Below are positions 6,577-32,362 of a stretch of 64,000 bases of DNA, piece by piece; position 1 is the first letter of the stretch; the number at the start of each line of letters is the position of its first letter. This DNA is from a virus (lineage: Duplodnaviria > Heunggongvirae > Uroviricota > Caudoviricetes). The notes under the pieces are model-generated. The model saw only the letters and a program-made list of their open reading frames with translations. It was not told the DNA's origin and did not search any database. The translations under genes and the position numbers were made by a program. The DNA is taken from positions 1 through 64,000 of the IMG/VR virus record IMGVR_UViG_3300035034_002381. One strand, given 5' to 3'.

Positions 6577-7140
6577 ATGAAAAATGTAAAAAACTTTCGT
6601 GAGTTTCTGAACGAGAATCGAGTCGAAAAGAGATTAGCTAGTCTGGACGCAGAATATACTATTGACAAAAAGTTGTGTAAACAATTAATGGATGTGGGAG
6701 AGCAAATAGATTATATATACAATAATTTAGATTTGCCACACTCTGACTTTGCCACTTCTAATTTTATACCACCCGAAATTGAAAACGATGATAAAACAGC
6801 GAGTGATTGGGTAGAATCTGAGAAGGCTCTTATAAGAAGTGAACTAAAATCTAAAGAATCTGAATATAAAAAAATTCTTAGAAAAATACAATCTAAACAT
6901 TCGTATATTAATGATGTAATTGAATATCTTAATCAAACTAATTTAGGTTTTACTTTAGAAAATACATTTATTGATAAAATAAACAGAAGAAATGATATCA
7001 TAAATACTGTTGTAATAAAAAGTTGGTATGGGTATGCTAAAGCTTCAAGAAAAGAATTAGAAAGATATAAAATAACACCTGAGCAACTTGCAGGTACTAT
7101 ATTATCAATGCGAGCAGTCGCTGATGAACTAACATATTAG
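6577..7140 (+). CDS. Hypothetical protein, member of the MKN-K-F-EF N-terminal paralog family
   Basis: N-terminus MKNVKNFREFLNE; promoter-like motif TTTAAAACTATATCAATCTTAGATATATAA upstream. Confidence 0.5.
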   Translation: MKNVKNFREFLNENRVEKRLASLDAEYTIDKKLCKQLMDVGEQIDYIYNNLDLPHSDFATSNFIPPEIENDDKTASDWVESEKALIRSELKSKESEYKKILRKIQSKHSYINDVIEYLNQTNLGFTLENTFIDKINRRNDIINTVVIKSWYGYAKASRKELERYKITPEQLAGTILSMRAVADELTY

Positions 7141-7224
7141 TAATAAAGTACTAAGTGATATTTGTAAACAATTAAAAAATAAGAATATCGAATGTGGCTT
7201 TGATGATGCATTCGACCCTAGTTA

Positions 7225-7425
7225 ATGGAAAGTTTTAAAAGTATACTCGAATCTAAAGATTCTGATAAACTCGCAAAAGAGATCAATAATGCAATCATTA
7301 AAATTGATGATTCTATGTCATACAAAGATTTTGCAGCTGCAGTTATCAAAATAATGAAAGAAGAATACGGAGAACACCTATATACAGAATTCTTAGGAAT
7401 TTTACAAAAAAATCTAAAGAAATGA
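7225..7425 (+). CDS. Small hypothetical protein, paralog of the 47731-47925 ORF
   Basis: N-terminus MESFKSILESKDSDKL versus MKSFKKVLENKEADKL. Confidence 0.4.
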   Translation: MESFKSILESKDSDKLAKEINNAIIKIDDSMSYKDFAAAVIKIMKEEYGEHLYTEFLGILQKNLKK

Positions 7426-7601
7426 AGACTTTTAAAGAATTTATAAACGAATCGGAATATATGGTGGTGAATGGAAAGAAAACGCCGAGATAACAGCTAG
7501 ACAATTATCTTCTGGGTTGGTTATTAGCATTGAACCTACAAAAATAAAAGTATTAGTTAGTACATCATCAGAACTAGATATCGATGTTTTAATGTCTAAC
7601 A

Positions 7602-7790
7602 ATGATAAAATTGAATATAGAAGTTATAGACGACTCGCCGTATACAAAACCAGGATCTACACAAAGTTTTATTAGAATAAAACTGAATGGAAAAACTATA
7701 TATGAAGATAAAGGAGCTAATTATGCCGACGCACCAAGTGACGAGATTATTAGAGCTTATGAAGAGGTGTATAAAATTAGATCCAAATAG
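7602..7790 (+). CDS. Small hypothetical protein
   Basis: 62-aa ORF from the six-frame track. Confidence 0.3.
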   Translation: MIKLNIEVIDDSPYTKPGSTQSFIRIKLNGKTIYEDKGANYADAPSDEIIRAYEEVYKIRSK

Positions 7791-8028
7791 GGAATACGTT
7801 TGCTTCTATACACAATAATTCAAAATATAAGACTTGAAAATGAAAAGATTTTTTAGAGTTGCTAGTATTACATCATTAATTGTTCTGTGTCTATTCACAT
7901 TTTTAATGCACGCGTTTCCATGGGAATGGTCAACTGATATTAGATTATATTGCATATTCACAATGGTTTCTTCATCGATTGTCGCGTATTTCGTAAGCCG
8001 TTAATAAAATTTAACATATAGATAACAG

Positions 8029-8058
8029 TGGGACTTTTATAGTCCCACTTTTTTTGTT
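8029..8058 (+). terminator. Rho-independent terminator (agtgggact-tttat-agtcccact plus TTTTTTT)
   Basis: Perfect 9-bp hairpin plus T-run. Confidence 0.75.
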
Positions 8059-8273
8059 TATATTTATACTGAATTTAAAAACTCAAAATAAATGTCAAGA
8101 GAAAATATGGATTATATGGGCGATGCAGTCTACGCAGAATACACGGGATGGTCAATTGATTTACGAGTCAATGATCATCGGAATCCTGTCGCTGTCGTTT
8201 TAGAAGAACTAGTCTTACAAAATTTAGTCGATTTTGCTAGACGAAAAGGTCTTAAAATCAAATAAATTATGAA

Positions 8274-8636
8274 ATGAAAGTAATTTATTCTGCAGTTTTT
8301 GTTGATAAGTCTACCCTTATAAAAAAATTTAAACCGGTATTTGATAACATTCATGCTCATCACATGACTATTGAATTTAGACCAGAATCAACAGATAATC
8401 TGGATATTGACAAAAATTACAAATTGAAAATTATCGGTAGATTAATTACAGACAAAGTTGATGTTCTTCTTGTTGATGATGGAGGCATCAGTAAAAATGA
8501 ATTCCCACACATTACAATTTCTATAGCTGATGGTGTTAGGCCTTTCGAAAGTAATACCGAAATCAAAAATAATTATTCCAAAATAACTAAACTTCGTGGA
8601 GAAATAACAGGCAAAATCGGAGTTTTCACCGCATAA
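8274..8636 (+). CDS. Small 2H phosphoesterase superfamily protein (LigT / 2',3'-cyclic phosphodiesterase or Acb1-like)
   Basis: Two H-x-T-x motifs, HHMTIEF and PHITISI, about 70 residues apart in a 120-aa protein. Confidence 0.5.
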   Translation: MKVIYSAVFVDKSTLIKKFKPVFDNIHAHHMTIEFRPESTDNLDIDKNYKLKIIGRLITDKVDVLLVDDGGISKNEFPHITISIADGVRPFESNTEIKNNYSKITKLRGEITGKIGVFTA

Positions 8637-8645
8637 ATCTTAACT

Positions 8646-8870
8646 ATGAAAAAGGTAACATTTCTAATTTTAATATTGTTCAACATTAATTTATGGGCAC
8701 AAGAACAACCAGATACAGTTTATGTTCTGAAAAGTTTTACAGTCAAAGGTGTGAGAGCTGATCCTAAAACACCGATCACACAAAAAACAATAGACAAGAA
8801 ATTTATTGAACGCAATTATTTTGGTCAAGAAATTCCTATTCTTTTAAATACCACACCATCAATAAATTAG
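8646..8870 (+). CDS. Small secreted protein
   Basis: Signal peptide MKKVTFLILILFNINLWAQ. Confidence 0.45.
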   Translation: MKKVTFLILILFNINLWAQEQPDTVYVLKSFTVKGVRADPKTPITQKTIDKKFIERNYFGQEIPILLNTTPSIN

Positions 8871-9116
8871 GTATGGAAAAATCTCAAGACTTTGAACCAA
8901 CCGAACCAGAAGAAATGTATTAAAATAATTGAAAATAACTCTTCCAGATTAAAACTTTTTGATTACTTTTGTATATATACTGTATATTTAAACAAACAAT
9001 AATGAAAACACAAATCAACATAACTACCAGTTATTCTTTAAGAAGCTTATGTACGTCGCTGAGACTATATGAGACAGGGTATCTATGTTGATCAAACATA
9101 TTTTTGATTACAAACT

Positions 9117-9150
9117 AAACCCTGTCTATTTAATTAGACAGGGTTTTTTT
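9117..9150 (+). terminator. Rho-independent terminator (aaccctgtcta-tttaatt-agacagggtt plus TTTTTTT)
   Basis: Hairpin plus T-run preceding the third tRNA cluster. Confidence 0.75.
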
Positions 9151-9155
9151 ATTTG

Positions 9156-9245
9156 GAAGATAAAGCAGCTGCATTGGAGCGGCGACTAGCCTTGAAAACT
9201 AGGTCTCGGAGAAATCTGGGTGGGGTTCGAGTCCTCTGTCTTCCT
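9156..9245 (+). tRNA. Class II tRNA-Ser (TGA)
   Basis: Acceptor ggaagat/gtcttcc, anticodon loop cttgaaa, long variable arm, T-loop ttcgagt; 90 nt. Confidence 0.55.
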
Positions 9246-9276
9246 CAAAGTTTTAGTTCATTGACATATTAATATT

Positions 9277-9362
9277 AGAGGATGCGGTAATGGTGGTTAT
9301 TACAGTATCTTGGAAAGGTACCGATCGTTTATTCGGTCAGGGTTCGACTCCCTCATCCTCTG
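9277..9362 (+). tRNA. Class II tRNA-Ser (GGA)
   Basis: Acceptor agaggatg/catcctct, anticodon stem gtatc/ggtac with loop ttggaaa, variable arm ccgatcgtttattcggtc, T-arm agggttcgactccct. Confidence 0.65.
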
Positions 9363-9493
9363 CTATGTTCTTCTTAGAATAACTAATTTATGTAAATGTG
9401 AGTTCGAATCTCATCAAATGCTTTTAGCATCTGTAGCCAAATGGTTAGGCAATATACTTGAAATATATAACAAACGATTAGAAGAACAACATG

Positions 9494-9566
9494 CTTCCAT
9501 AGTATAAAGGTTCATTATTCCTGTTTTGTAATCAGGCGATATCGGTTCGATTCCGATTGGGAGCTC
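9494..9566 (+). tRNA. tRNA-Thr (TGT)
   Basis: Acceptor gcttcca/tgggagc, anticodon loop tttgtaa, T-arm atcggttcgattccgat. Confidence 0.6.
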
Positions 9567-9714
9567 AATGAATATGATGTTTATTTAGATCCTAAAAATG
9601 ATTATCTTATTGGTATAGATAGTAAAAAAATTGAAAAGGTCGAAGAATTGTATAATGTGCGTAATAATAGACAAGGATAATTTATCTTGGAATGATATTC
9701 AAAATAAAATAAAT

Positions 9715-9795
9715 GTTTCAGTGGTGGAATGGTAGACACGTCGGTCTTAGGAACCGATGCCGAAAGGCGTGAGAGTTCGAGTCTCTCCTGGAATA
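9715..9795 (+). tRNA. Class II tRNA-Leu (TAG), canonical architecture
   Basis: D-arm gtg-gaatggtaga-cac, anticodon stem tcggt/accga with loop cttagga, variable arm gccgaaaggc, T-arm gagagttcgagtctctc. Confidence 0.65.
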
Positions 9796-9796
9796 C

Positions 9797-9876
9797 ACTC
9801 TGGTGGATTAGGTAAATTGGTACAGCTAAACGGCTTAGACCCGTATCCCTTCTGGGTTCGAATCCCAGTCAGAGTA
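9797..9876 (+). tRNA. Atypical 80-nt tRNA-like gene, family member 1. The anticodon-like hairpin is acgg-cttagac-ccgt (TAG). There is no variable arm, and a 7-nt insertion separates the acceptor from the 3-bp D-stem
   Basis: Acceptor actctgg/tcagagt, conserved block tggattaggtaaattggtacagctaa, T-arm ctgggttcgaatcccag. Confidence 0.5.
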
Positions 9877-9881
9877 CAAAT

Positions 9882-9961
9882 GCTCCTGTGGTTTATGTAA
9901 ATTGGCACAGCTAAGCGGCTTAAACCCGCAACCTTTATGGGTTCGAGTCCCATCAGGAGTA
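9882..9961 (+). tRNA. Atypical 80-nt tRNA-like gene, family member 2; anticodon-like hairpin gcgg-cttaaac-ccgc (TAA)
   Basis: Acceptor gctcctg/caggagt, conserved block tggtttatgtaaattggcacagctaa, T-arm atgggttcgagtcccat. Confidence 0.5.
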
Positions 9962-10056
9962 CAAAAGTTTATCAACGTCTTGAGTCAAGTTGGATGATGA
10001 CAAAAAGGCTAACGGCAGAAGTGAATCCATCGCACTGTGTTACATAAACTTTATCT

Positions 10057-10129
10057 GGCCAGGATTCTCAATTGGACGGGACTCTGTCTTCTAAACAGAT
10101 GTTTGTGGGTTCGAATCCCATCTTGGTCT
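10057..10129 (+). tRNA. tRNA-Arg (TCT)
   Basis: Acceptor ggccagg/cttggtc, anticodon stem tctgt/acaga with loop cttctaa, T-arm gtgggttcgaatcccat. Confidence 0.6.
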
Positions 10130-10135
10130 CTAAAC

Positions 10136-10209
10136 GCAGGTATACCTAAGTGGTTTAAAGGAGCGGATTGCAAACCCGTTATTCATTGGTTCGAATCCAA
10201 TTACCTGCT
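10136..10209 (+). tRNA. tRNA-Cys (GCA)
   Basis: Perfect acceptor gcaggta/tacctgc, anticodon loop ttgcaaa, T-arm attggttcgaatccaat. Confidence 0.7.
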
Positions 10210-10214
10210 CACTT

Positions 10215-10297
10215 GGAAGGTAACTTGATGGTGATAGAGGTAGTTTGCTAAACTACTGGCCGTTTACTCGGTCGAGGTTCGATTCCTCTGCCTTCCG
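10215..10297 (+). tRNA. Class II tRNA-Ser (GCT)
   Basis: Acceptor ggaaggt/gccttcc, anticodon stem gtagt/actac with loop ttgctaa, variable arm ggccgtttactcggtc, T-arm gaggttcgattcctc. Confidence 0.7.
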
Positions 10298-10301
10298 CTA
10301 T

Positions 10302-10379
10302 GCTCCTGTGGATTATGTAAAAGCACAGCTAACACCTTGAGGAGGTGATCCTTTGTGGGTTCGAGTCCCGCCAGGAGTA
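10302..10379 (+). tRNA. Atypical tRNA-like gene, family member 3; anticodon-like hairpin cacc-ttgagga-ggtg (GAG)
   Basis: Acceptor gctcctg/caggagt, conserved block tggattatgtaaaagcacagctaa, T-arm gtgggttcgagtcccgc. Confidence 0.5.
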
Positions 10380-10404
10380 CAAAGAAGCAAAGAGTTAGTT
10401 AGGT

Positions 10405-10479
10405 TAGACTGGCTTGTTATGTGGTGAAATTGGTAAACGCGAGCGCTTTGGTGCTTAGTAACCTTAACACTTCTTATTT
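10405..10479 (+). ncRNA. Partial tRNA-like element: a Leu-type D-arm gtg-gtgaaattggtaaac-gc plus a hairpin, with no T-arm. It abuts the next tRNA
   Basis: Shares its D-arm sequence with the 10788-10899 element. Confidence 0.3.
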
Positions 10480-10553
10480 GCTGAGTTAGTATAGTCGGTT
10501 TATTACGATACCCTGGTACGGTATTAACACCAGTTCGATTCTGGTACTCAGCT
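10480..10553 (+). tRNA. tRNA-Thr (GGT)
   Basis: Perfect acceptor gctgagt/actcagc, anticodon stem atacc/ggtat with loop ctggtac, T-arm accagttcgattctggt. Confidence 0.7.
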
Positions 10554-10565
10554 CATGAAAAATAT

Positions 10566-10645
10566 GCCTCTGTGGATTATGTAAATTGGCACAGCTAACG
10601 GTTTCAAACTCCGATCTTTTATGGGTTCGAATCCCATCAGAGGCA
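10566..10645 (+). tRNA. Atypical tRNA-like gene, family member 4; anticodon-like hairpin cgg(t)-ttcaaac-(t)ccg (CAA)
   Basis: Perfect acceptor gcctctg/cagaggc, conserved block tggattatgtaaattggcacagctaa, T-arm atgggttcgaatcccat. Confidence 0.5.
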
Positions 10646-10661
10646 CAAGTAGGAGAAATTT

Positions 10662-10746
10662 AGTCCAGTGGCGAAACAGGTATACGCACAAGATTTAAGC
10701 TCTTGCTTCCATTGAGGAATTGCGGGTTCGATTCCCGCCTGGATTA
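10662..10746 (+). tRNA. Class II tRNA-Leu (TAA), canonical architecture
   Basis: Acceptor agtccag/ctggatt, D-arm gcg-aaacaggtata-cgc, anticodon stem caaga/tcttg with loop tttaagc, variable arm ttccattgaggaa, T-arm gcgggttcgattcccgc. Confidence 0.65.
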
Positions 10747-10787
10747 CTAAGTTAGTACGGGTTCGATCCCCGTCTTGGCTACTAAAT

Positions 10788-10899
10788 TTGACCGTGGTGA
10801 AATTGGTAAACACACCCTTAAATCAGGGAGTATGAGAATATGTACTTGAAGCTGACGCAGAACATCATACATATGTAGGTTCGAATCCTATCGGTCGAA
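10788..10899 (+). ncRNA. 112-nt tRNA-like RNA with a roughly 45-nt extra stem-loop (atatgta...tacatat) inserted before the T-arm
   Basis: Acceptor ttgaccg/cggtcga, Leu-type D-arm gtg-aaattggtaaa-cac, anticodon-like ccc-ttaaatca-ggg, T-arm gtaggttcgaatcctat. Confidence 0.4.
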
Positions 10900-10904
10900 C
10901 AAAT

Positions 10905-10978
<74 letters not shown>

Positions 10979-11325
10979 CTATCTAAAACTTTATTCAATT
11001 TCCATAATATAATGTGTAACTAAACTTTATAGAAATGGAAAAAATACTAATGTCTGAAATTTTGACTTATGACAACTTCGACGACGGTTTACCTGAAGAA
11101 TATGAATTTGTCGATTCTGAACAAACATATTTTGATGGTGAAAAAGGCTTTGTTAATATCGAAGCTATTATCAGAAGAGAATCAGACTCACAATTTTTAA
11201 AGTAAAATACACCGATTATGGAAAAGGTGAAAATGATCTTATGGAAAGTGTGGGCGAACCTGTAACTCAAAAATCCAAAACAATTTTCTACTATGTAACT
11301 CAAAAATCCAAAACAATTTTCTACT

Positions 11326-11598
11326 ATGAATAGTATGACCTTTTTATTAGGCATTACGTATGTTATCGGATACTTTTTAAGTATCATAATCCTAAAAAGA
11401 TTTCACCATATTTTGGATATTCCAGATTATAATTCATATCCAAAATATAATGAATATTCAAGCAATGCACAAGCATACACAATGTGGTCAATTGTATGGC
11501 CGTTATTTTGGGTCTTAAAAATCATAGTTCTTCTTTTCGAAAAACTTATTAATTTAACTAAATATATACTAAATGGAAACTCAAGCTCAAGAAAGTAA
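11326..11598 (+). CDS. Small membrane protein with two hydrophobic segments
   Basis: LLGITYVIGYFLSIIIL and MWSIVWPLFWVLKIIVLLF. Confidence 0.4.
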   Translation: MNSMTFLLGITYVIGYFLSIIILKRFHHILDIPDYNSYPKYNEYSSNAQAYTMWSIVWPLFWVLKIIVLLFEKLINLTKYILNGNSSSRK

Positions 11599-12508
11599 TA
11601 GAATAATCAAAGAAATTCATTCTTCTTTTTATTCAATGGATCAAGAAACTGATACATATCTTCAACGCCAAATTCAAGCTGCGTATGACGAATCTATCAA
11701 AGGCTCTTTAGAGAAGACTATCAAAAAATATGGTTTTAATAATGCCAAAAACTCTGACATTTTTGATAAAGCATTACTTGAAAGTCGGGAAGAATTAAAT
11801 GATGTCTTAAACGAATGTTCAGTGACATATCCAGGTAAAAAGTTTATTACTGATGAACAAATAGCACAGCTTTGTATCAAATATAATTTATTACTAACAA
11901 CACCAGATAGATTTATTGGTGAAATACCAGAACGTAATATCCAAGAGTTGAACGACTTTAATCCAAAAGGTAGCGAAAAAAAGGCGTTTTTTGATCCCAA
12001 AGTTTTTTATAAATTATATAACTTTATAAGAGAATATGAAGAGAAGCATTATTATATGAATAAAAATCTAAAAAAATCTATTGCAATGATTTATCGATCA
12101 TTTATGAATCATAGTAACATGGATTCAATACTTTTTCCAGATAATAATAAATATATTGTTCATGGTGTCAATGAAGATAAATCAATCACCACAACTGAAT
12201 TAGGTATTCAAACAGCAAAGAAAATATCTGAAGAATTATCTAAGAAAGAAAGAAATTCTGTACCTATTTTACCGTTGTTTTCACAAACTATGATAGCAGC
12301 GACATCTGATTTACTTGATATTCCTAAACTAGGATTGATCAAGAATAAAAGAAATGAACTTGTTTTAGGTCTTAATTCAAAACAATTTAAAGAAAATTTT
12401 CTACCTGATCCAATTGTACTACATAAAGTAAAACGTGGTGCTATTATTATAACTGCTTGGGGCTTGGAATCTCAAGATGAACTAGTATTCAATCCTATTA
12501 TTAATTGA
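11573..12508 (+). CDS. Hypothetical protein
   Basis: 311-aa ORF. Confidence 0.45.
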   Translation: METQAQESNRIIKEIHSSFYSMDQETDTYLQRQIQAAYDESIKGSLEKTIKKYGFNNAKNSDIFDKALLESREELNDVLNECSVTYPGKKFITDEQIAQLCIKYNLLLTTPDRFIGEIPERNIQELNDFNPKGSEKKAFFDPKVFYKLYNFIREYEEKHYYMNKNLKKSIAMIYRSFMNHSNMDSILFPDNNKYIVHGVNEDKSITTTELGIQTAKKISEELSKKERNSVPILPLFSQTMIAATSDLLDIPKLGLIKNKRNELVLGLNSKQFKENFLPDPIVLHKVKRGAIIITAWGLESQDELVFNPIIN

Positions 12509-12512
12509 TAAT

Positions 12513-12695
12513 ATGGAATATACGTGTATAAAGGTAGTAACTATTACAGAAGGTAATTTACCCCCTAGGATAGTAGTTGAATTGAAATCTGGAAATATTA
12601 AAATCGAAATAGAAATAAATGAAGACTTTGAAAAGGTCCCTGAAGATCTATTGAAACTTAAACCGGGCGAAACGTATTCGCTTTTAATAAATTAA
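12513..12695 (+). CDS. Small hypothetical protein
   Basis: 60-aa ORF. Confidence 0.3.
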   Translation: MEYTCIKVVTITEGNLPPRIVVELKSGNIKIEIEINEDFEKVPEDLLKLKPGETYSLLIN

Positions 12696-16750: not shown

Positions 16751-17058
16751 GAAAAATCTATATATATAAACTAATAATATGTATGGACACAGAATCACAT
16801 AGCTCGTTTAGCGAATCTTTACAAGATAGAAATTACTATCTAGTCAAAGATTACTTACATGAACTAGGATTTTTGCCCTCACAATATTATATTAAAGATT
16901 ATCAGAATTCAATTGAAGTTGATTTTGATGATAATCAAGCCGTCTTTTATATTATAGAAGATATCAAAAAGACAAAATACATAGAGCATTTTGATGTTGA
17001 TTATAAAAAGCCGGCGAATTCAAGAAGACATACTGCAGTGTTTAATTTCACTCAGTAA
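16747..17058 (+). CDS. Hypothetical protein
   Basis: 103-aa ORF. Confidence 0.35.
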   Translation: MRKIYIYKLIICMDTESHSSFSESLQDRNYYLVKDYLHELGFLPSQYYIKDYQNSIEVDFDDNQAVFYIIEDIKKTKYIEHFDVDYKKPANSRRHTAVFNFTQ

Positions 17059-17119
17059 AAAATGAGAATAAAAAAAATCATTTTATCCTTGATATATAAA
17101 AAAACAAATATAGAAAAAG

Positions 17120-19195
17120 ATGAACAAAGATTCTAATGTATTATTAATACTTGAAAGATCTTCATCAAATCTAGATGTTAACAAGGAATCGGGTGATTAT
17201 ATTCTCGAAGGTATTTTTGCTCAATTTGGAGTTGAAAACAATAACAAAAGGATTTATGAGGAAAAAGAGTATTTACCACATCTCGAATACTTAAAAAAGA
17301 AAATTTCAGAAAATCGATTGATGGGAGAACTTGATCACCCAGAAAAATTTGAAATTGCTTTAGACAAAGTATCTCACGTAATTGAGAATATTGAATATGA
17401 TCAAGCAAAACGCCAGATTAAAGGGCGTGTACGTATTTTAGATACGCCATCCGGAAAAATCGCAAAGAGTCTAATCGACTCTAATATTCCTATTAGTATT
17501 TCATCACGAGCTGCTGGTTCTGTGAGTGAAAATAAAACTGTTTCTATTAAGAGAATTTTTACTTATGATTTAGTTGCTGATCCAGGTTTTGAAGATGCAC
17601 AATTATCAAGAATAAATGAATCATTTGGTTTAGACAACGAAAATAATCTACAAATTTTTGATGCTTCTAGATGGGACAACAATTTTTCGTTTGATGAAAA
17701 AGAAAAAGAAAAGCCTGTTGAGGCAATAAAAGAAAATAAAGAAAATACTACAGATATGAAAGAATTTGTGACAATTGAAAGCATGGAACGCTATTCATTA
17801 ATGGTCAAAGAAGAAATTGCTAAAATCAATACACGATTAGAAACTCTGAATGAGAGTAATGCTAATTCTGATGAAACAGCAGAACTTAGAAAAACCGTTG
17901 ATAATTTAGTAGGGTATGTTAATGAAATGGCTACCGAAATTAATCAAAACAGAGAATACATGTCATATACTGCTGAAATGCTTGACGAAAGTATTTCTTG
18001 GTCAGAAAATGAGATCGGTAATCAAGTTACTAAATTAATTGAATATACTGAATCTGAATTGGCTGTTCATCTTGATGGTTTAATTGAACACAATAACTAT
18101 CTTGCAGAAAAATTAAACACGACTATTGGATACGTTAATGAAGAATTGGCTCCAATTTTAGATGAGTCTATTAATCACAATGATTATTTAGTTGAACAAA
18201 TTGCTAATAACCGAAAATATACTGAGTATCTTGCTGAAAATGCTGTAGACTCAACAAATTTTGATTCGTTAGTAGAATATACTGAACATGTATATGAAAA
18301 TGCTGCTGGAAAATTTGAAGGTAAAATTAATGAATCTGCAACTGCTGAGGATGTAATTAAAAAACATAAACTTAAAACACATCACGATGTTGCTAAGTTT
18401 ATAGGAGATTTTTATGATTTACCAGATACAATTAAAGGATCTACCGATAAATTCACATTTAAAGACGTTGAGGACAACGTAATTAAAGTTGATGGTAAAG
18501 CAGGAACAGTAGACGGTAAAAAATTATCTCTGGCGGGATTGGTTGATCTTATGTCAGGTGGTGATTTTGATCTTCTTATTGAAAATCAAGCTAATAAAAT
18601 TAACGAAAATAAAAACGTATCAACAGATATTGAAAATCGATACATGAGTATCAATGAAAAAATTGACGCGGCTCTTGAGCAGATCAAGAAAACAAAGACT
18701 GAAGAAATCACAGAGTCTAAACGTCATCCTTTCACCAAACTACTCAACGAAAGTAATAGAGCTGCTTTCACTGAGTTAGGAAAAACCGAAAAAGAAAAGG
18801 TTTCAAAAGCTCTAAATGAAAACGGTATTTTAAGTACTGTAAAACTTAACGAAAAATTCACTTCATTGTTAGAAGGTAATTTCGAAATTGTTGAAGAGCC
18901 TAAATGGTTATCTGAAGCACCAGACAAGTATAAAGCTATTTTTGAAAGTTTGAATGAGGAAACTCAGGATAAACTTAGAGCTCAAGCTTCATGGTACGAA
19001 GGTAAACTTAAATCTCCTTATCAAATCGAAAATTTCTGGGCAACTAGAGGACTGAACGAAGACGTTGAGTTGAAGAATCTGAAAGACGATGCTGATGTAA
19101 AACTTATTAAAGAAAGTAATGATAGATCTAAAGATCTGGGTTATTCTTCTGATCGAGTTGCTGCAATTAAACAAGGTCTGAAAAGATTCAAATAA
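17120..19195 (+). CDS. Probable prohead protease fused to a scaffolding-type coiled-coil domain
   Basis: Sits immediately upstream of the major capsid gene. The N-terminal roughly 200 aa contain EGIFAQFGVENNNKRIYEEKEY...GELDHPE (T4 gp21 / S77-like). The rest is an acidic, heptad-rich segment typical of scaffold proteins. Confidence 0.5.
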   Translation: MNKDSNVLLILERSSSNLDVNKESGDYILEGIFAQFGVENNNKRIYEEKEYLPHLEYLKKKISENRLMGELDHPEKFEIALDKVSHVIENIEYDQAKRQIKGRVRILDTPSGKIAKSLIDSNIPISISSRAAGSVSENKTVSIKRIFTYDLVADPGFEDAQLSRINESFGLDNENNLQIFDASRWDNNFSFDEKEKEKPVEAIKENKENTTDMKEFVTIESMERYSLMVKEEIAKINTRLETLNESNANSDETAELRKTVDNLVGYVNEMATEINQNREYMSYTAEMLDESISWSENEIGNQVTKLIEYTESELAVHLDGLIEHNNYLAEKLNTTIGYVNEELAPILDESINHNDYLVEQIANNRKYTEYLAENAVDSTNFDSLVEYTEHVYENAAGKFEGKINESATAEDVIKKHKLKTHHDVAKFIGDFYDLPDTIKGSTDKFTFKDVEDNVIKVDGKAGTVDGKKLSLAGLVDLMSGGDFDLLIENQANKINENKNVSTDIENRYMSINEKIDAALEQIKKTKTEEITESKRHPFTKLLNESNRAAFTELGKTEKEKVSKALNENGILSTVKLNEKFTSLLEGNFEIVEEPKWLSEAPDKYKAIFESLNEETQDKLRAQASWYEGKLKSPYQIENFWATRGLNEDVELKNLKDDADVKLIKESNDRSKDLGYSSDRVAAIKQGLKRFK

Positions 19196-26562: not shown

Positions 26563-26973
26563 ATGAAAGCCTTTACTTATGTTATAGATATTGATGACAC
26601 TATCAATATTACCGATAGAGATGAAAATAATATAGGACTGTATTCTCAGTCTCGGCCGATACTTAAAGTTATCAATAAAATTCGAAGACTTAAAAAAGAA
26701 GGCCACAAAATCATACTTTTTACTGCTAGAGGTATGCGTACATTTAATAATGATGTCAAAAAAATCGAAGATTTTCATAGAGAAACACTCGTTAAATGGT
26801 TAAATGACCATGAAGTCCCTTATGACGAACTACAGTTCGGTAAACCATGGGGCCCCCATGTAATATATGTCGATGATCGTGCTGTTACTATTAACCAATT
26901 TGTTTTGGGTGGTCCCGAAAATCACAGAAGTTATACACACATTAACAAAACAGTTATAAATGATGAATTATAA
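26563..26973 (+). CDS. HAD-superfamily phosphatase
   Basis: Motif I VIDIDDTI (DxDxT), motif II ILFTARG, motif IV GKPWGPHVIYVDDRA. Confidence 0.6.
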   Translation: MKAFTYVIDIDDTINITDRDENNIGLYSQSRPILKVINKIRRLKKEGHKIILFTARGMRTFNNDVKKIEDFHRETLVKWLNDHEVPYDELQFGKPWGPHVIYVDDRAVTINQFVLGGPENHRSYTHINKTVINDEL

Positions 26974-28660
26974 AGTAATTATTCCCGCGGCAGGGAAGGC
27001 ATCAAGACTCAAGCCTTTATCTTCTTCAATGTCAAAATCAATGGTGCCAGTAAATGGTAAACCAATAATTTCATATATTCTTGATCAACTGTTTGAACTA
27101 GGAAATCCATTTCAAATAGTTATTGTTGAAAATGAGCTCGGTGATATTCAAGATTTTGTTAAAAACGCATATCCAAATTATTATGAAGAATCCCGTATTC
27201 TTTTTGCAACTCAAAAAGAAAGGTTAGGTCCTTTGCATGCTATTGAAATTGGTGCAAATAGGTTTCCGGAAAATGATAACATGCCAATTATGGTTTGGCT
27301 CGGAGATACAATCTGTTTGGAAATGGGTGAGTTGCCAGTTAATGAATCTTTATTAATTACATCGCCTGTCGCCGATTATAAAAGATGGTGTTTAGTAGAT
27401 AACGAGAATGTCTTCTATGATAAACCAGATAACAAACCAAGCACTAACCAAGCTTTAATAGGTATATATTATTTCCATGATTTTAAGGCCTTCTACGAGG
27501 CCCTAGATAAGGGAATGCAAGCTCCTATGATTAAAGATGAACATCAAATATCGGCTTTATTAGAAGCATATAAAAAACAACATATATTCAAAATCAGAAA
27601 AACTGATGAATGGTTTGATTGTGGTGAGTTACATACATTTTATGAATCTAAAGCAAGACTTCTTGGAAGATCTGCCAGGTCATTTAATAGTCTAGAAGTA
27701 AATACATTCCATAACACAATTACTAAATCTTCATTAACATTCGAAGGTAAACTGAAAATTGAGAATGAAAAAAATTGGTATTTAGGTTTACCTGAGAATA
27801 TTCAGATTCTCACACCTAGAGTATTAAAATCAAATTCAGGTACGCTAGTTATGTCGCAAGAACCTGGAACACCTCTTAATGAAATGTGGCTTTATGAGGA
27901 TTTGACTGATGATACATGGAAAAGAATAATTGATAAAACGTTACTTATACACAATAAAATTTTCTATCAATCTAGATATATTCCTAAATCTTCTAAATTA
28001 GATAGATTTGCTGCAAGAAAGGAAATGTATCTGACTAAAAATATTGACAGATTGACAGAAATTTCATTCCTGCCTTTTGCACAGAAAAATATAAAAATGA
28101 TTCGAGATTTTGTGCGGGTTACTGGTGAATTATTAATTGAAGATGAAGGTCGTTGGTCGCCACATTTTCATGGAGATTCTCACATGGGTAATATTTTATT
28201 TGAACCTTTACAGGGAAGTATGAAATTTTTGGATCCACGTGGAAAGTTTGGAAATATCGTAGGCATTGAGGGCGATATGTATTATGATATGGCTAAAATT
28301 GCGCAAGATTTTCTTTTACGCTATCCTGAAATTTTATCTGGTCATTATCATTTTAGTGGAGATAATTTTGACCAGCTTGAATTTTATAGAAATGACGAGA
28401 GATCTAAAACTATGCTAAAACATTTCAGAAAAAGAATTGGTGAATATGGTTATATTCCTAATCTTGTTTTAATGTTAGCAACTGTGCTTATCATAACTTG
28501 TATACCTTTTCATAAAGACGATCCAGAAAGACAAAAAGCATTTTGGTATATGGCAGTAAATGTTATTAAAGAAAGAGGGTGGAATATCCAACTCGAAGAT
28601 CATCTCAAAAAACAAAAATTACAATTATCAGACAAGATACATAATCTATACAACTTATAA
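26960..28660 (+). CDS. Bifunctional nucleotidyltransferase / APH-fold kinase (LicC-LicA-like). It would activate a phospho-alcohol or sugar-1-phosphate as an NDP derivative
   Basis: N-terminus KVIIPAAGKASRLKP...VPVNGKPIISYILDQL (sugar-phosphate nucleotidyltransferase G-x-G-T-R-L-like motif). C-terminus HFHGDSHMGNILF and FLDPRG (Brenner kinase motif of choline/aminoglycoside kinases). Confidence 0.6.
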   Translation: MMNYKVIIPAAGKASRLKPLSSSMSKSMVPVNGKPIISYILDQLFELGNPFQIVIVENELGDIQDFVKNAYPNYYEESRILFATQKERLGPLHAIEIGANRFPENDNMPIMVWLGDTICLEMGELPVNESLLITSPVADYKRWCLVDNENVFYDKPDNKPSTNQALIGIYYFHDFKAFYEALDKGMQAPMIKDEHQISALLEAYKKQHIFKIRKTDEWFDCGELHTFYESKARLLGRSARSFNSLEVNTFHNTITKSSLTFEGKLKIENEKNWYLGLPENIQILTPRVLKSNSGTLVMSQEPGTPLNEMWLYEDLTDDTWKRIIDKTLLIHNKIFYQSRYIPKSSKLDRFAARKEMYLTKNIDRLTEISFLPFAQKNIKMIRDFVRVTGELLIEDEGRWSPHFHGDSHMGNILFEPLQGSMKFLDPRGKFGNIVGIEGDMYYDMAKIAQDFLLRYPEILSGHYHFSGDNFDQLEFYRNDERSKTMLKHFRKRIGEYGYIPNLVLMLATVLIITCIPFHKDDPERQKAFWYMAVNVIKERGWNIQLEDHLKKQKLQLSDKIHNLYNL

Positions 28661-28670
28661 AAAACATACT

Positions 28671-28949
28671 ATGAGCAAAGATTTAGAAAAAGCTAGTGAG
28701 ACACTAGAAGAAACATTGACAGATATCCAAAAGGTGGCAGCTGCTAATTTTTATGATATTGTACAAATTAGTTTAGCCGATAAAGAAGGTAAAGTAGTTG
28801 GTAAAGCTTCTATGAAATATGAAGATATTTTAGCAATGACTAAGATGCATACACAAGATTCTTCACACGTTGTAGGAATGTTATTTCATGCAGTCGAATC
28901 AGAAACTCGTAACAAATTACGAGAAGAAAAAGAAAATGAAGCCAAATGA
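28671..28949 (+). CDS. Hypothetical protein
   Basis: Start moved to the internal ATG (MSKDLEKASE) to avoid a 100-nt overlap with the upstream gene. Confidence 0.35.
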   Translation: MSKDLEKASETLEETLTDIQKVAAANFYDIVQISLADKEGKVVGKASMKYEDILAMTKMHTQDSSHVVGMLFHAVESETRNKLREEKENEAK

Positions 28950-29134
28950 TTTTTAAAGTAAGAGTAGAAGAAAAGAGCATAGAAGATGTTATAGAACTTA
29001 TTGAAACAGGAGAAGGGAAAAAAGGTCTCCAATTTGATCTATATAATGAAAAACCATATTTTTCACATGTAGAAATTTTCGTTAATACTGATGATTTCTA
29101 CACATTAAAGGATTATTTAAATGAACAAACCTAA
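28946..29134 (+). CDS. Small hypothetical protein
   Basis: 62-aa ORF. Confidence 0.3.
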   Translation: MIFKVRVEEKSIEDVIELIETGEGKKGLQFDLYNEKPYFSHVEIFVNTDDFYTLKDYLNEQT

Positions 29135-31064
29135 GACTATATGTCTTGTTATGATTGTAAAAAATGAGGCAAAAAATTTACCTCGTTGTTTTTCTACGAT
29201 CAAACATATTATTGATTATTGGGTAATTGTTGATACTGGTTCAACTGATAACACACAGGAAGTTATACAGAAAGAGTTAGCCGATATTCCTGGTGTATTA
29301 ATGGAAAGACCGTGGGTCAATTTTGGTCATAATAGATCCGAATCTTTGGCTTTTGCTAAAAACAGAGCAGATTATCTTTTGCTTTGTGATGCTGATGAAC
29401 AAATTATACCTACACACAATTTTGACAAATCTGAGTTGACTCTTGATCAATATCATTTAAGATATAATGGGAGCTTAGATTATATGGTTCCTTATCTTAT
29501 TAAGTCTAATTTGGCTTGGAGATTTGTAGGAGTTACCCATGAATTTTTGACAGCAAGTGACACAAAATCTTCAGGTGAGATTAAAAGCCTTTCAATTAAA
29601 GATTGGGGAGATGGTGGAGCAAAATCTGATAAATTTGAAAGAGACATTAAATTGCTCGAACAAGGTTTGATTGATGAACCGAAGAATGTTAGGTATATGT
29701 TTTATCTAGCAAATTCTTATAAGAATACTAAGGATTTTGATAACGCAATCAAATGGTATAAAAAACGTATCGATGCAGGGGGTTGGATAGAAGAAGTTAC
29801 ATGTTCATATGAATATATGGGAGGATGTTATCAGCAGAAAAATGACCACGGGAATGCGATTAAAACATGGATAGATGGTTATGAATTTAATCCTTCTCGT
29901 GCTGAGTGTTTATATGAGGCAGGTAAATTACTTCGTGAAGAAAATAAGAATAGAATAGCTTACGAATTTTTACAAAAGGCTAAAGAAATTCCATATCCTA
30001 CTAACGATAGATTATTTATCAAAAGAGATGTTTATGAATATTTGATAGATTATGAACTGACTATTTGTGCATATTATGTTAAACCAGAATATGATATGAC
30101 CGAGACATTTAAAAGGCTAATCTTTTGGCCAAGTCATTTACAACAAAACATTATACAAAATTTTAAGTTTTGGGCTAAAGATTTGAATACACTTATAGGT
30201 CAAGAGGAAAGTATGATCTTGGCTAAAGATTTGATTAGTAATGATTTGGTTGAGGGTTTTACACCTAGTTCCCCATCAATTCTTTTTCATAAAAATCGCA
30301 AGTACATAAATGTGCGCCAAGTATCATATAAAATTGACGAAAATGGTAAGTATTTAGATCGTGCAAGTGGAGGTCATTGTAAACATGTGAATACAATTAA
30401 CACAATGTATTGGACTGATGGACCCTCATATGACACGGAAAATTTTAAACCCAATGATATTTCTACTAAACATGTGAATGGTATTGAAGATCTAAAACTA
30501 TATACACACAATGGAGTAATCAAATACACTGGGACAAAATGGTTGGATTATAACAAAATTTCTATAGTTATTGGTGAGTATACTAAAGAAGGTCTAGATA
30601 ATTATGCTATTCTAGAGTCTCCAGAAGGAAGGAATGTTGAAAAAAATTGGGTACCGTTTGGATTAGATAATGAAGAACTTTTTGTATATGATTGGAATCC
30701 AATAAAAATTGGAAGAATCAAAAATAATAAACTAGTAATCAAAAATTTAAAAACTAGTTTTCCTAACTTGCGTGGATCAGCTCCTGGTAAACTTATTGGA
30801 GATCATATCTATTTTTTATGTCATTTTGTAGAATATTCTACACCAAGAATTTACTATCATATCTTCATTAAAATGCATAAAGATAATTGGGAAAAAATCG
30901 AGATTTCTAAACCGTTTGTTTTTGAAAAACCACAAATAGAATATTCAGTAGGATTTGATTATAATATTAAGACTGATGATATACATATTGCATATAGTGT
31001 AAATGATTCGAATGCAAGAATCAAATCTTATTCACAAACACAATTTCAAAAACTTTTTACTTAA
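29121..31064 (+). CDS. Family 2 glycosyltransferase with a central TPR-like region
   Basis: N-terminal GT2 signature ICLVMIVKNEAKNLPRC...VIVDTGSTDNT; TPR-like YLANSYKNTKDFDNAIKWYKKRI. Confidence 0.65.
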   Translation: MNKPKTICLVMIVKNEAKNLPRCFSTIKHIIDYWVIVDTGSTDNTQEVIQKELADIPGVLMERPWVNFGHNRSESLAFAKNRADYLLLCDADEQIIPTHNFDKSELTLDQYHLRYNGSLDYMVPYLIKSNLAWRFVGVTHEFLTASDTKSSGEIKSLSIKDWGDGGAKSDKFERDIKLLEQGLIDEPKNVRYMFYLANSYKNTKDFDNAIKWYKKRIDAGGWIEEVTCSYEYMGGCYQQKNDHGNAIKTWIDGYEFNPSRAECLYEAGKLLREENKNRIAYEFLQKAKEIPYPTNDRLFIKRDVYEYLIDYELTICAYYVKPEYDMTETFKRLIFWPSHLQQNIIQNFKFWAKDLNTLIGQEESMILAKDLISNDLVEGFTPSSPSILFHKNRKYINVRQVSYKIDENGKYLDRASGGHCKHVNTINTMYWTDGPSYDTENFKPNDISTKHVNGIEDLKLYTHNGVIKYTGTKWLDYNKISIVIGEYTKEGLDNYAILESPEGRNVEKNWVPFGLDNEELFVYDWNPIKIGRIKNNKLVIKNLKTSFPNLRGSAPGKLIGDHIYFLCHFVEYSTPRIYYHIFIKMHKDNWEKIEISKPFVFEKPQIEYSVGFDYNIKTDDIHIAYSVNDSNARIKSYSQTQFQKLFT

Positions 31065-32362
31065 TGTACATTATAAAAAACAATAAACTTGAATCTACTG
31101 ATAATATCGATTTATTTTTTAATGAGATAAATGTTGGACAACATATTGCTAAATATGGATATTTCGAAAGTGACCTTATTAATTGGTTAAAGCTTACATA
31201 TAAAAATAATGATAAAATCTTTTTAGATTTAGGAGCGCACATAGGTTCATATTCAATAGAATTAGCAGAAAATTTTCATTCAGTTCATTCATTTGAACCT
31301 AATCCAACAGTCTATAATCATTTATGTGCTAATGTTGCATTAAAGAGATTATCAAATAGGGTATTTCCACACAGAGTTGCATTATCGGATAATAAATCTA
31401 AACAGCCATATTATGAGAGATCCAAAGATGGTGGAGGTAATGGAATTGAAGTTGTAAGAGAGAACGATAAGCACTCATTCTTTGTAGAATCTAAATGTTT
31501 AGATGATTATTCTTTCGATAAAGAAATCGGTTTGATTAAAATTGATATCGAAGGTCATGAGTATAAAGCTATTTTGGGTGCATATGAAACTTTGAAAAAC
31601 TCATATTTCCCACCTATAATTTTCGAATCTTGGGCGCAAAATACACACCCAGAATATTCACAAGAAATACTTTTAGAAATTCGTGATAAAACATTTGATG
31701 TATTAAAGGATTATGGATACACTGTTAAATCCATAAGTGGATATAATGAAATGTTTATTGCTGTTCAAGAGCGTGAAAAATCTCAAGAAGATATTATTGT
31801 TGAAGGTCTTTTGACAGATAAGTTAGACGTATGGCTTAACTCACCTGGAGGGACTCGAAGCAATTATATAGCCGATGTTCTAGAAAAAAGTAATTTAAGA
31901 GTGAGAAACGAATCCTGGTATAAGTATGGTTGTCATTGGACTTCTCCTTTATTTGAAAGGGAATTTAAAACTACAAGATTGTTTTGCTACACTAGCGATA
32001 TCGGACTCGCATTGACAAGTCAGTTAAATGCCAATACTATTGATAAACTGAATTTTGCAGATTTTTATAATGAACCATGGGATTTATATCGATGGATACA
32101 AAATATTAAAAAACAAGTGATTAACTGGTCGGATCCTGGCGTATTCTTTTTAAATACCGACTATTTAAATGATAAAGATATTCAGTCTGAATTTAAAACT
32201 CTTACTGGAGATAGTTTAGACATATCAGATTTCAGACTTGACCGTAAATCTAAAAAATTACATCCTGCATTAATACAATACATGGATGAGATTAATGAGA
32301 TTAATGAGTTATTAGCAAAATTACCTAATGCCGGTTTTGGCGGAGAAGTTGATGAAGGTTAA
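31064..32362 (+). CDS. FkbM-family methyltransferase with a C-terminal extension
   Basis: FLDLGAHIGSYSIELAE matches the FkbM D-x-G-A-x-x-G motif. Confidence 0.55.
   Translation: MYIIKNNKLESTDNIDLFFNEINVGQHIAKYGYFESDLINWLKLTYKNNDKIFLDLGAHIGSYSIELAENFHSVHSFEPNPTVYNHLCANVALKRLSNRVFPHRVALSDNKSKQPYYERSKDGGGNGIEVVRENDKHSFFVESKCLDDYSFDKEIGLIKIDIEGHEYKAILGAYETLKNSYFPPIIFESWAQNTHPEYSQEILLEIRDKTFDVLKDYGYTVKSISGYNEMFIAVQEREKSQEDIIVEGLLTDKLDVWLNSPGGTRSNYIADVLEKSNLRVRNESWYKYGCHWTSPLFEREFKTTRLFCYTSDIGLALTSQLNANTIDKLNFADFYNEPWDLYRWIQNIKKQVINWSDPGVFFLNTDYLNDKDIQSEFKTLTGDSLDISDFRLDRKSKKLHPALIQYMDEINEINELLAKLPNAGFGGEVDEG

Follow-up and report, generated by a model that had tools for sequence, protein, structure and literature searches.

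The stretch of viral DNA analysed here, positions 1 to 64,000 of the IMG/VR record IMGVR_UViG_3300035034_002381 (64,000 nucleotides; hereafter the window), contains four related genes of 78 to 80 nt, G1 to G4, that carry leucine anticodons on a non-canonical transfer RNA (tRNA) body. We consider it likely, with a probability of about 0.7, that they encode working leucine elongator tRNAs with a non-cloverleaf core, which belong to a phage-centred family and would be charged by the leucyl-tRNA synthetase (LeuRS) of the host. The distinguishing part of the body is a short helix, here named helix X, in which bases 9-11, right after U8, pair with the three bases right after the anticodon arm (44-46), so that the helix encloses a leucine-type D arm together with the anticodon arm. 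In an alignment of 85 distinct family sequences, helix X is 97% paired overall. The family is widespread and almost restricted to phages.

Helix X and the predicted fold of the family

The window, AT-rich with about 31% GC, comes from a large T4-like phage; its genes include those for a prohead protease and a gp23-type major capsid protein, and it contains a long tRNA array in which all four genes lie on the + strand. The coordinates given in a first-pass annotation, which had been made from the sequence alone, were matched exactly by the sequence and by a covariance model of the family, and the anticodon loops that it listed (CTTAGAC, CTTAAAC, TTGAGGA and TTCAAAC), its shared 5' block in all four genes, and the lack of a long variable arm were also borne out. 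G1 (9797-9876, 80 nt, anticodon TAG at 9836-9838) begins 1 nt past the end of a canonical class II tRNA-Leu(TAG) with a long variable arm (9715-9796, +; ARAGORN, and Rfam tRNA model at 54.4 bits). G2 (9882-9961, 80 nt, anticodon TAA at 9921-9923) consists of the acceptor strands 9882-9888 and 9954-9960, U8 at 9889, the D arm at 9896-9912, the anticodon arm at 9914-9930, the T arm at 9937-9953 and A73 at 9961. G3 (10302-10379, 78 nt, anticodon GAG at 10339-10341) has a D loop that is 2 nt shorter, with one G in place of the GG of the other copies, and has G37. G4 (10566-10645, 80 nt, anticodon CAA at 10605-10607) has a weak anticodon stem of three G-C or C-G pairs and a U.U. A second canonical class II gene, tRNA-Leu(TAA), follows in the same array (10662-10747, +; ARAGORN, Rfam 52.6 bits), and both canonical genes had been recognised in the first-pass annotation. 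When the whole window was searched with the family model, G1 to G4 scored 86.4, 97.7, 79.0 and 95.0 bits, respectively, and the best match outside the family, an ordinary tRNA, scored 36 bits.

Comparative alignment, proposed in the first-pass annotation as a check, revealed covariation in the acceptor, anticodon and T stems, together with helix X, which had been missed. At helix X, pair 10-51 of the 85-sequence alignment is G-C in 60 members and A-U in 25 and is never unpaired; pair 11-50 is C-G in 38, A-U in 21 and U-A in 19, with a mismatch in seven; and pair 9-52 is G.U in 52 and G-C in 33. None of 10,000 permutations matched the observed pairing at either covarying pair, and sliding the partner strand by one to four columns lowered the pairing to 14-72%. 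Eight fully paired haplotypes were found, several of which coexist among paralogs of single genomes; those of the window are GGA/TCC, GGU/ACC and GGA/UCU. By family covariation, GGA at 9805-9807 of G1 pairs with TCC at 9846-9848, which adjoins the 3' end of the anticodon arm, and GGT at 9890-9892 of G2 pairs with ACC at 9931-9933, the third pair being changed on both sides relative to G1, from A-U to U-A. The corresponding strands, also on the + strand, are GGA at 10310-10312 and TCC at 10349-10351 in G3, and GGA at 10574-10576 and TCT at 10615-10617 in G4 (G.U, G-C, A-U). RNAalifold recovers helix X from the alignment alone. The 7-nt insertion that had been noted after the acceptor strand is present, although it is not unstructured, as pairing with the variable region takes up its first three bases.

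The acceptor, T and anticodon stems are also well supported by the 85 sequences. The acceptor stem is 99.7% paired and the T stem 100%, with many compensatory changes, and the earlier statement that the copies differ only in the anticodon hairpin did not hold, since the acceptor and T stems vary with compensation. The inner four pairs of the anticodon stem are 97-100% paired and all of them covary. The outer pair 27-43 is C-G in 44 members, another standard pair in 7 and A.A in 31, including all four window copies; in about one third of the members, the window copies among them, 27/43 is A.A and U12 is able to pair with A43, and therefore the stack would be divided as 4+4 rather than 3+5 bp, with eight pairs either way.

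For the D stem, the variation supports pairing of columns 15-17 with 29-31, mostly U.U, G-C and U.G, with a single nucleotide separating it from the anticodon stem. At the inner pairs 16-30 and 17-29, each of the ten variant cells keeps pairing, and at the outer pair 15-31 all five changes create a pair; since these events are few, the D stem is supported with less certainty than helix X. Its 11-nt loop, AAAUUGGYACA, shows the same pattern as the D loop of E. coli tRNA-Leu, GAAUUGGUAGA. Two other registers were rejected. A D stem in the canonical register (columns 10-12 with 28-30) is 78% paired with zero compensation. The TGT/ACA stem of the first-pass annotation (columns 15-17 with 26-28, leaving a 4-nt gap) is broken by every variant that touches it (14 of 14 variant cells, none compensated). 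The competing hairpin CTGTG/CACAG suggested there fared no better, as 16 and 36 of the 71 cells at two positions are unpaired, again with no compensation.

Read from the 5' end, the proposed body consists of a 7-bp acceptor stem, U8, bases 9-11, a 3-nt linker, the D arm, 1 nt and the anticodon arm with its 7-nt loop; the second strand of helix X is followed by three nucleotides, the last of them an invariant U, and then by a normal T arm and A73. Six nucleotides thus lie between U8 and the D stem and six between the anticodon and T stems. There is no two-nucleotide connector (8, 9) into a 3-4-bp D stem and no four-way junction, as a cloverleaf has; the topology predicted from the covariation is two nested three-way junctions, one of acceptor, helix X and T arm and the other of helix X, D arm and anticodon arm. 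In the usual tRNA, the 8-9 connector and the 44-48 variable strand run antiparallel along the groove of the D stem and form base triples. In the helix-X body, the lengthened connector and variable strands would pair with each other instead of forming such triples. As judged from tRNA architecture, helix X, whose 3' strand continues from the anticodon stem with no linker, probably stacks on that stem; the weakened D arm would be placed beside them, its GG still in position to meet the T loop. Two short side-by-side helices would then probably replace one augmented D helix, with the L shape kept.

Standard tRNA finders handle these genes poorly. At default settings in the window, ARAGORN reported only one of the four (10302-10380, as Leu GAG), and its relaxed folds, a further check that had been proposed, could be obtained and were mutually inconsistent, two of them with 4-nt anticodons. 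One relaxed fold, which has a D stem GATT/AATT and uses the invariant ACAGCTAA as the loop of a 4-nt anticodon, was rejected by inspection because members with GAC or AAAC at that place do not pair and because its supposed variable arm is the element that carries the leucine anticodons. The Rfam tRNA model gave 33.7 bits for G2, 30.2 for G3 and 25.0 for G1, relative to a gathering score of 29, and no + strand match for G4; in the whole-window run at the gathering threshold, none of the four passed. Its alignment of G2 imposes a broken D stem. It also missed four of the five members at two other loci (L001 and L123). Default ARAGORN and the Rfam model overlook most family members. Rfam scores against the transfer-messenger RNA (tmRNA) and mascRNA models were only 12-15 bits. 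An ordinary class I fold of another identity, which the first-pass annotation had named as counter-evidence, was given by none of the standard finders.

Distribution, leucine identity nucleotides and genomic setting

The family set comprises 71 sequences from pattern scans (alignment A1) and 14 added by the covariance model and from isolates, which together form the 85-sequence alignment A2. The patterns were taken from the invariant 5' block and run on IMG/VR and metagenome contigs, and 71 sequences were left once those without a paired acceptor stem had been removed; the covariance model (R1) was built from these and found 13 further members in the fetched loci. Members are 78-81 nt long, share the invariant block GUAAAUUGGCACAGCUA, and occur on contigs from a few kb up to 379 kb. 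Model scores are bimodal, with members at 62-102 bits, phage tRNA-Leu genes that lack the long arm and have a canonical D arm at 41-52, and ordinary tRNAs mostly below about 43. Two isolated phages have members, Synechococcus phage BUCT-ZZ01 with two copies at about 122324-122403 and 116566-116645 of ON615601, and Pseudomonas phage PHB09 with one copy at 17054-17133 of NC_073677; the latter copy lies in a tRNA array, was missed by ARAGORN, and has a hypothetical coding sequence (CDS) drawn over it in the GenBank record. A pattern scan of 185,579 cellular genomes (one per bacterial or archaeal species) found one true locus only, an 8.7-kb contig of a metagenome-assembled genome with three family copies among 11 other tRNAs, which may be a phage contig. 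The other ten matches of that scan were unrelated sequences. Six Pelagibacter matches, five in the genome scan and one in a metagenome scan, were rejected as an unrelated conserved sequence. Of two IMG/VR scans whose patterns had a spacer one base too short, one gave no match and the other unrelated sequences only. Among GenBank phages, no close relative of the window as a whole was found.

All 85 anticodons are for leucine (UAG 36, UAA 22, CAA 21, GAG 3, CAG 2 and AAG 1, including one row shifted by MAFFT and re-read by hand). Twelve positions, U8, A14, A15, G19, A20a, A35, U48, U54, U55, C56, A58 and A73, are invariant in all members, and G18 (84/85), A37 (84/85) and U33 (83/85) nearly so. 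E. coli LeuRS depends on A73 as a key determinant, and on a hinge made up of A15:U48, G18G19, A20a, G18:U55, G19:C56 and U54:A58, and the long variable arm is dispensable for it (PMC9976931). The nucleotides of U8:A14, A15:U48, G18G19, A20a and U54:A58 are present in the family, as read in the sequence and not as tertiary pairs. The commonest second acceptor pair is C2-G71, an antideterminant against seryl-tRNA synthetase (SerRS) (PMC9976931), and neither G3.U70 nor any other foreign identity mark is conserved in the family. By these marks, the family appears to have retained what LeuRS needs and to have lost what LeuRS can spare. The commonest first pair is G1.U72 (63 of 85; alignment A2 columns 1 and 80), an unusual choice for the pair adjoining the CCA end; it also occurs in phage tRNA-Leu genes lacking the long arm (JSF10, Felix O1, Acibel004 t21) and in the canonical gene at 9715-9796 of the window.

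Family genes are members of tRNA arrays and are separated from their neighbours by 1-10 nt. Whether they encode CCA tracks the other tRNAs of each genome: it is present where nearly all tRNAs encode it and absent where few do, as in the window, where few tRNAs encode CCA and the family members lack it. At most loci the family anticodons are not repeated by other tRNA-Leu genes in the fetched stretch. At L001 (IMGVR_UViG_3300032254_000001, a 344-kb phage contig), the family supplies UAG, CAA and UAA next to one canonical AAG, and there, as at L037/L086, L065 and L090, it constitutes most or all of the tRNA-Leu genes seen in the stretch. The leucine codons of the window are TTA (48%), CTT (20.5%), TTG (14%), CTA (10%), CTG (3.7%) and CTC (3.1%), and the tRNAs GAG (for CTT/CTC) and CAA (for TTG) come only from the family; TAG and TAA repeat canonical genes. 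The array location, the CCA habit and the mostly non-duplicated anticodons point to use as tRNAs.

We infer from the sequences the expression, processing, leucylation, ribosome use and three-dimensional arrangement of these RNAs. They would be transcribed within the phage tRNA array and trimmed as their neighbours are, with CCA added where it is not encoded. Charging by the host LeuRS would be expected because A73 and the D-loop/T-loop hinge are kept and the anticodon and the long arm are not needed by this enzyme. The charged tRNAs would then decode phage leucine codons on the ribosome.

A close relative contig (L102), whose flanks are 93-99.7% identical to the window, shows how the copies change. 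Its G3 is identical to that of the window, its G4 differs at one D-loop pyrimidine, and its G2 has eight differences, all of them stem-compensatory or in the anticodon loop; its counterpart of G1 looks degenerate. This pattern fits constraint on structure together with some redundancy.

The GenBank records of BUCT-ZZ01 and PHB09 annotate no tRNA in the fetched stretches, where ARAGORN and Rfam find about 20-30; the missing annotation is thus uninformative on the detectability of the family. In both, at L123 (BUCT-ZZ01) and at L128 (PHB09, NC_073677, 14000-20000), small hypothetical CDSs are drawn over some of the tRNAs.

Alternative readings and relation to known tRNAs

Several observations weigh against working leucine tRNAs of a new fold. 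The TAG and TAA copies of the window duplicate canonical genes; the degenerate counterpart of G1 in the relative suggests that individual copies may be non-functional; the anticodon stem of G4 is weak, and one of the two D-loop G's (G18) is missing from G3. Helix X is just 3 bp long; one of its pairs is G.U in 61% of members, and 7 of 85 have an A.A or A.C mismatch. The D stem is weak (U.U, G-C, U.G) and draws its support from few variant sequences. Minimum free energy folds of single sequences differed for each copy (z-scores -0.7 to -2.7) and did not reproduce the model consistently. Finally, the set was seeded from family-derived sequence patterns and is therefore biased towards conserved D-loop sequences. 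Some of these points would suit tRNA-shaped decoys or regulators that take no part in decoding, such as a sponge for a tRNA-directed nuclease or toxin, a means of titrating LeuRS, or a tRNA-sensing regulator: the duplicated TAG and TAA, the defects of G3 and G4, and the low scores with standard tRNA models are all of this kind, and toxins that read tRNA shape exist (PMC11541572). However, a decoy would need neither six leucine anticodons nor a 7-nt loop with U33 and A37, the anticodons mostly complement the other tRNA-Leu genes of the same genome, the loci named above rely on the family for most or all of the tRNA-Leu seen, and the full LeuRS identity set and the CCA habit are traits of charging substrates; we regard this explanation as unlikely. 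Decaying pseudogenes or chance resemblance might be suggested by the degenerate G1 counterpart and by broken tRNA-like pieces in the array (~9390-9470 and 10384-10470). It would be extraordinary, though, for 85 distinct sequences from very different phages to keep 94-98% of cells paired, to share about 20 invariant positions, and to show compensation in helix X as well as in the acceptor, anticodon and T stems; the mis-registered pattern scan yielded unrelated sequences only.

Another explanation is an ordinary cloverleaf tRNA-Leu that lacks the long arm and has a long D region, with helix X being absent, transient (for example, in the precursor only) or a tertiary contact. Arm-less tRNA-Leu genes of 73-75 nt with a canonical D arm are common in phages (Felix O1, Acibel004, JSF10) and are the nearest relatives by model score, and helix X is short. 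Nevertheless, three antiparallel Watson-Crick or G.U pairs in a row that show double compensatory changes are characteristic of a helix, the canonical D stem using bases 10-12 has the low, uncompensated pairing described above, and a cloverleaf has no place for six nucleotides between U8 and the D stem, all of which makes this explanation quite improbable. The genes might also be mischarging or recoding tRNAs that read leucine codons and carry another amino acid. The unusual body with its missing class II arm would allow this, and the nev-tRNAs (PMC3333845) and allo-tRNAs (PMC5389517) are precedents for discordant identity and anticodon. We think it very unlikely because the leucine identity nucleotides A73, A14, A15:U48, G18G19 and A20a, conserved throughout the family (G18 in 84/85), always accompany leucine anticodons; C2-G71 is the commonest second pair, no G3.U70 or foreign mark is conserved, and canonical tRNA-Leu genes with the same anticodon are present in some of the genomes. 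Among the three readings offered by the first-pass annotation, therefore, that of structurally novel tRNAs is favoured and that of mischarging disfavoured, and the decoy or regulator has gained no positive support.

We thus rate the family, on its sequence features, as tRNA-Leu by predicted function and as a new structural variant, having neither the four-way junction with its two-nucleotide connector nor the class II arm. Compared with class II tRNA-Leu (9715-9796 of the window, or that of E. coli), it has the same leucine anticodons, A73, U8, leucine-type D loop (A14 A15 .. G18 G19. A20a), U48, T-loop, 7/5 acceptor and T stems and location in tRNA arrays. It differs in having six nucleotides between the anticodon and T stems in place of the variable-arm hairpin, six nucleotides rather than one between U8 and the D stem (three of which pair with the variable region), a D stem reduced to U.U, G-C and U.G, and a first pair that is mostly G1.U72. 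The arm-less phage tRNA-Leu genes of 73-75 nt, namely Felix O1 tRNA-Leu(UAG), t21 and t22 of Acinetobacter phage Acibel004 and that of Vibrio phage JSF10, resemble the family in the loss of the long arm, leucine anticodon, A73, frequent G1.U72, and similar D loop and anticodon and T arms, and such genes often share genomes with it (PHB09, L045, L049, L050). Unlike the family, they are cloverleaves with a 2-nt connector, a covarying canonical D stem, a 5-6-nt variable loop and no helix X, and they are found by ARAGORN and annotated as tRNA-Leu in GenBank. Since arm-less tRNA-Leu is common in isolated phages, the novelty lies in the extra helix and not in the missing arm.

Animal mitochondrial tRNA-Leu also lacks the long arm and is recognised via A73 and A14 (PMC9976931), and mitochondrial tRNA-Ser(UCN) is a working tRNA with changed lengths of the connector and the anticodon stem (PMC7609411). 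These tRNAs, however, are organellar, have degenerate D- and T-loop sequences and lack a helix joining connector 1 to the variable region, whereas the family keeps a fully canonical elbow. The allo-tRNAs and nev-tRNAs are likewise natural tRNAs of non-textbook shape that came to light through sequence mining. The former have 8/4 or 9/3 acceptor and T stems, a long arm, serine identity and assorted anticodons, and the latter class II bodies with anticodons for amino acids other than leucine and serine; in the family, by contrast, the stems are 7/5, there is no long arm, and identity and anticodon agree. The tRNA-like domain of tmRNA, viral 3' tRNA-like structures and mascRNA have no functional anticodon loop or are part of a larger RNA, unlike these stand-alone, tRNA-sized genes in arrays with standard anticodon loops. 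No Rfam family is dedicated to these genes, a 2020 review of non-canonical natural tRNAs contains no phage or leucine case (PMC7609411), and a full-text literature search, with partial coverage of subscription journals, retrieved no description of the family.

If the family works in bacterial cells, it would be a natural and widespread tRNA with a different secondary structure, and so a counter-example to the cloverleaf; it would show how far the tRNA core can be rebuilt with LeuRS recognition and the L shape retained, and would serve as a new scaffold when orthogonal or engineered tRNAs are designed. It would also expose a blind spot in the annotation of tRNAs in phage genomes. As two phages with members are cultured together with their hosts, PHB09 with Pseudomonas syringae pv. 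actinidiae and BUCT-ZZ01 with Synechococcus elongatus PCC 7942, the question is directly testable.

As to why phages should have such a body, one speculative and rather unlikely idea is that it evolved in phages by keeping all that LeuRS and the ribosome require while dropping or rewiring features, namely the long variable arm and the D-stem triples, that are read by host tRNA-directed toxins, nucleases or non-cognate synthetases such as SerRS, within a wider strategy of two bodies per anticodon. Speculatively, the body could escape host enzymes that read shape; the MenT3 toxin anchors on the class II long variable loop, and deletion of this loop from tRNA-Ser impairs its action (PMC11541572). 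It could also, no less speculatively, provide a safer leucine identity across hosts, with the arm that SerRS recognises removed. If the change of shape does counter a tRNA-directed defence, this would be a new chapter in the conflict of phage and host over tRNAs. An argument that only tRNA-Leu can lose its arm was dropped, as the window also has an arm-less tRNA-Tyr.

Other unusual genes in the same genomes

Alternate-body tRNAs in the same genomes give hints of a wider strategy. In the window, a class II tRNA-Tyr(GTA) of 84 nt (349-432), a normal tRNA-Ile(GAT) of 75 nt (437-511), the arm-less tRNA-Tyr(GTA) of 76 nt (512-587) and a tRNA-Ile(GAT) of 89 nt with a long variable arm and an encoded CCA (588-676) adjoin one another and look like a body swap. 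The D arm and anticodon stem of the last resemble those of E. coli tRNA-Tyr. The 344-kb contig L001 has, at 6630-12584, tRNAs of 86-92 nt for Lys(TTT), Met, Ile(GAT, TAT), Gln(TTG), Thr(TGT) and Glu(TTC), a length that suggests a long variable arm, which was seen by eye for Lys(TTT) only. Most of them have a normal gene of 74-77 nt nearby for the same amino acid, often with the same anticodon.

Further odd elements lie in the window. A tRNA-like gene at 10788-10899 (Rfam tRNA, 35.7 bits) combines a D arm of the leucine type with an insert of about 44 nt that precedes the T arm; its anticodon region, CCCTTAAATCAGGG, can be read as a 6-nt loop on a 4-bp stem or as an 8-nt loop on a 3-bp stem. 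The 5' portion of 10384-10470 is like the start of this element (TGTGGTGAAATTGGTAAACGC...) and is followed by no recognisable T arm, so that it may be a broken copy. At ~9390-9470, a tRNA 3' half (GTGAGTTCGAATCTCATCAAATGCT) stands a few bases upstream of a tRNA 5' half (GCATCTGTAGCCAAATGGTTAGGC...anticodon stem-loop); the two acceptor strands are largely complementary, and the halves could represent a tRNA gene that is permuted, split or broken. Three serine-type class II tRNAs (9155-9244, 9276-9363 and 10215-10298) scored 31-37 bits with the Rfam tRNA-Sec model (threshold 47), higher than with the general tRNA model, and the one at 9155-9244, with TGA at relaxed settings, was missed by default ARAGORN. 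In BUCT-ZZ01, a permuted tmRNA is present at 12108-12508 of L123. Elsewhere in the window, a nicotinamide phosphoribosyltransferase gene (35996-37714) and a cluster with a nucleotidyl transferase, a glycosyltransferase and an FkbM-type methyltransferase (26960-32362) are auxiliary metabolism or modification genes unrelated to the tRNA family.

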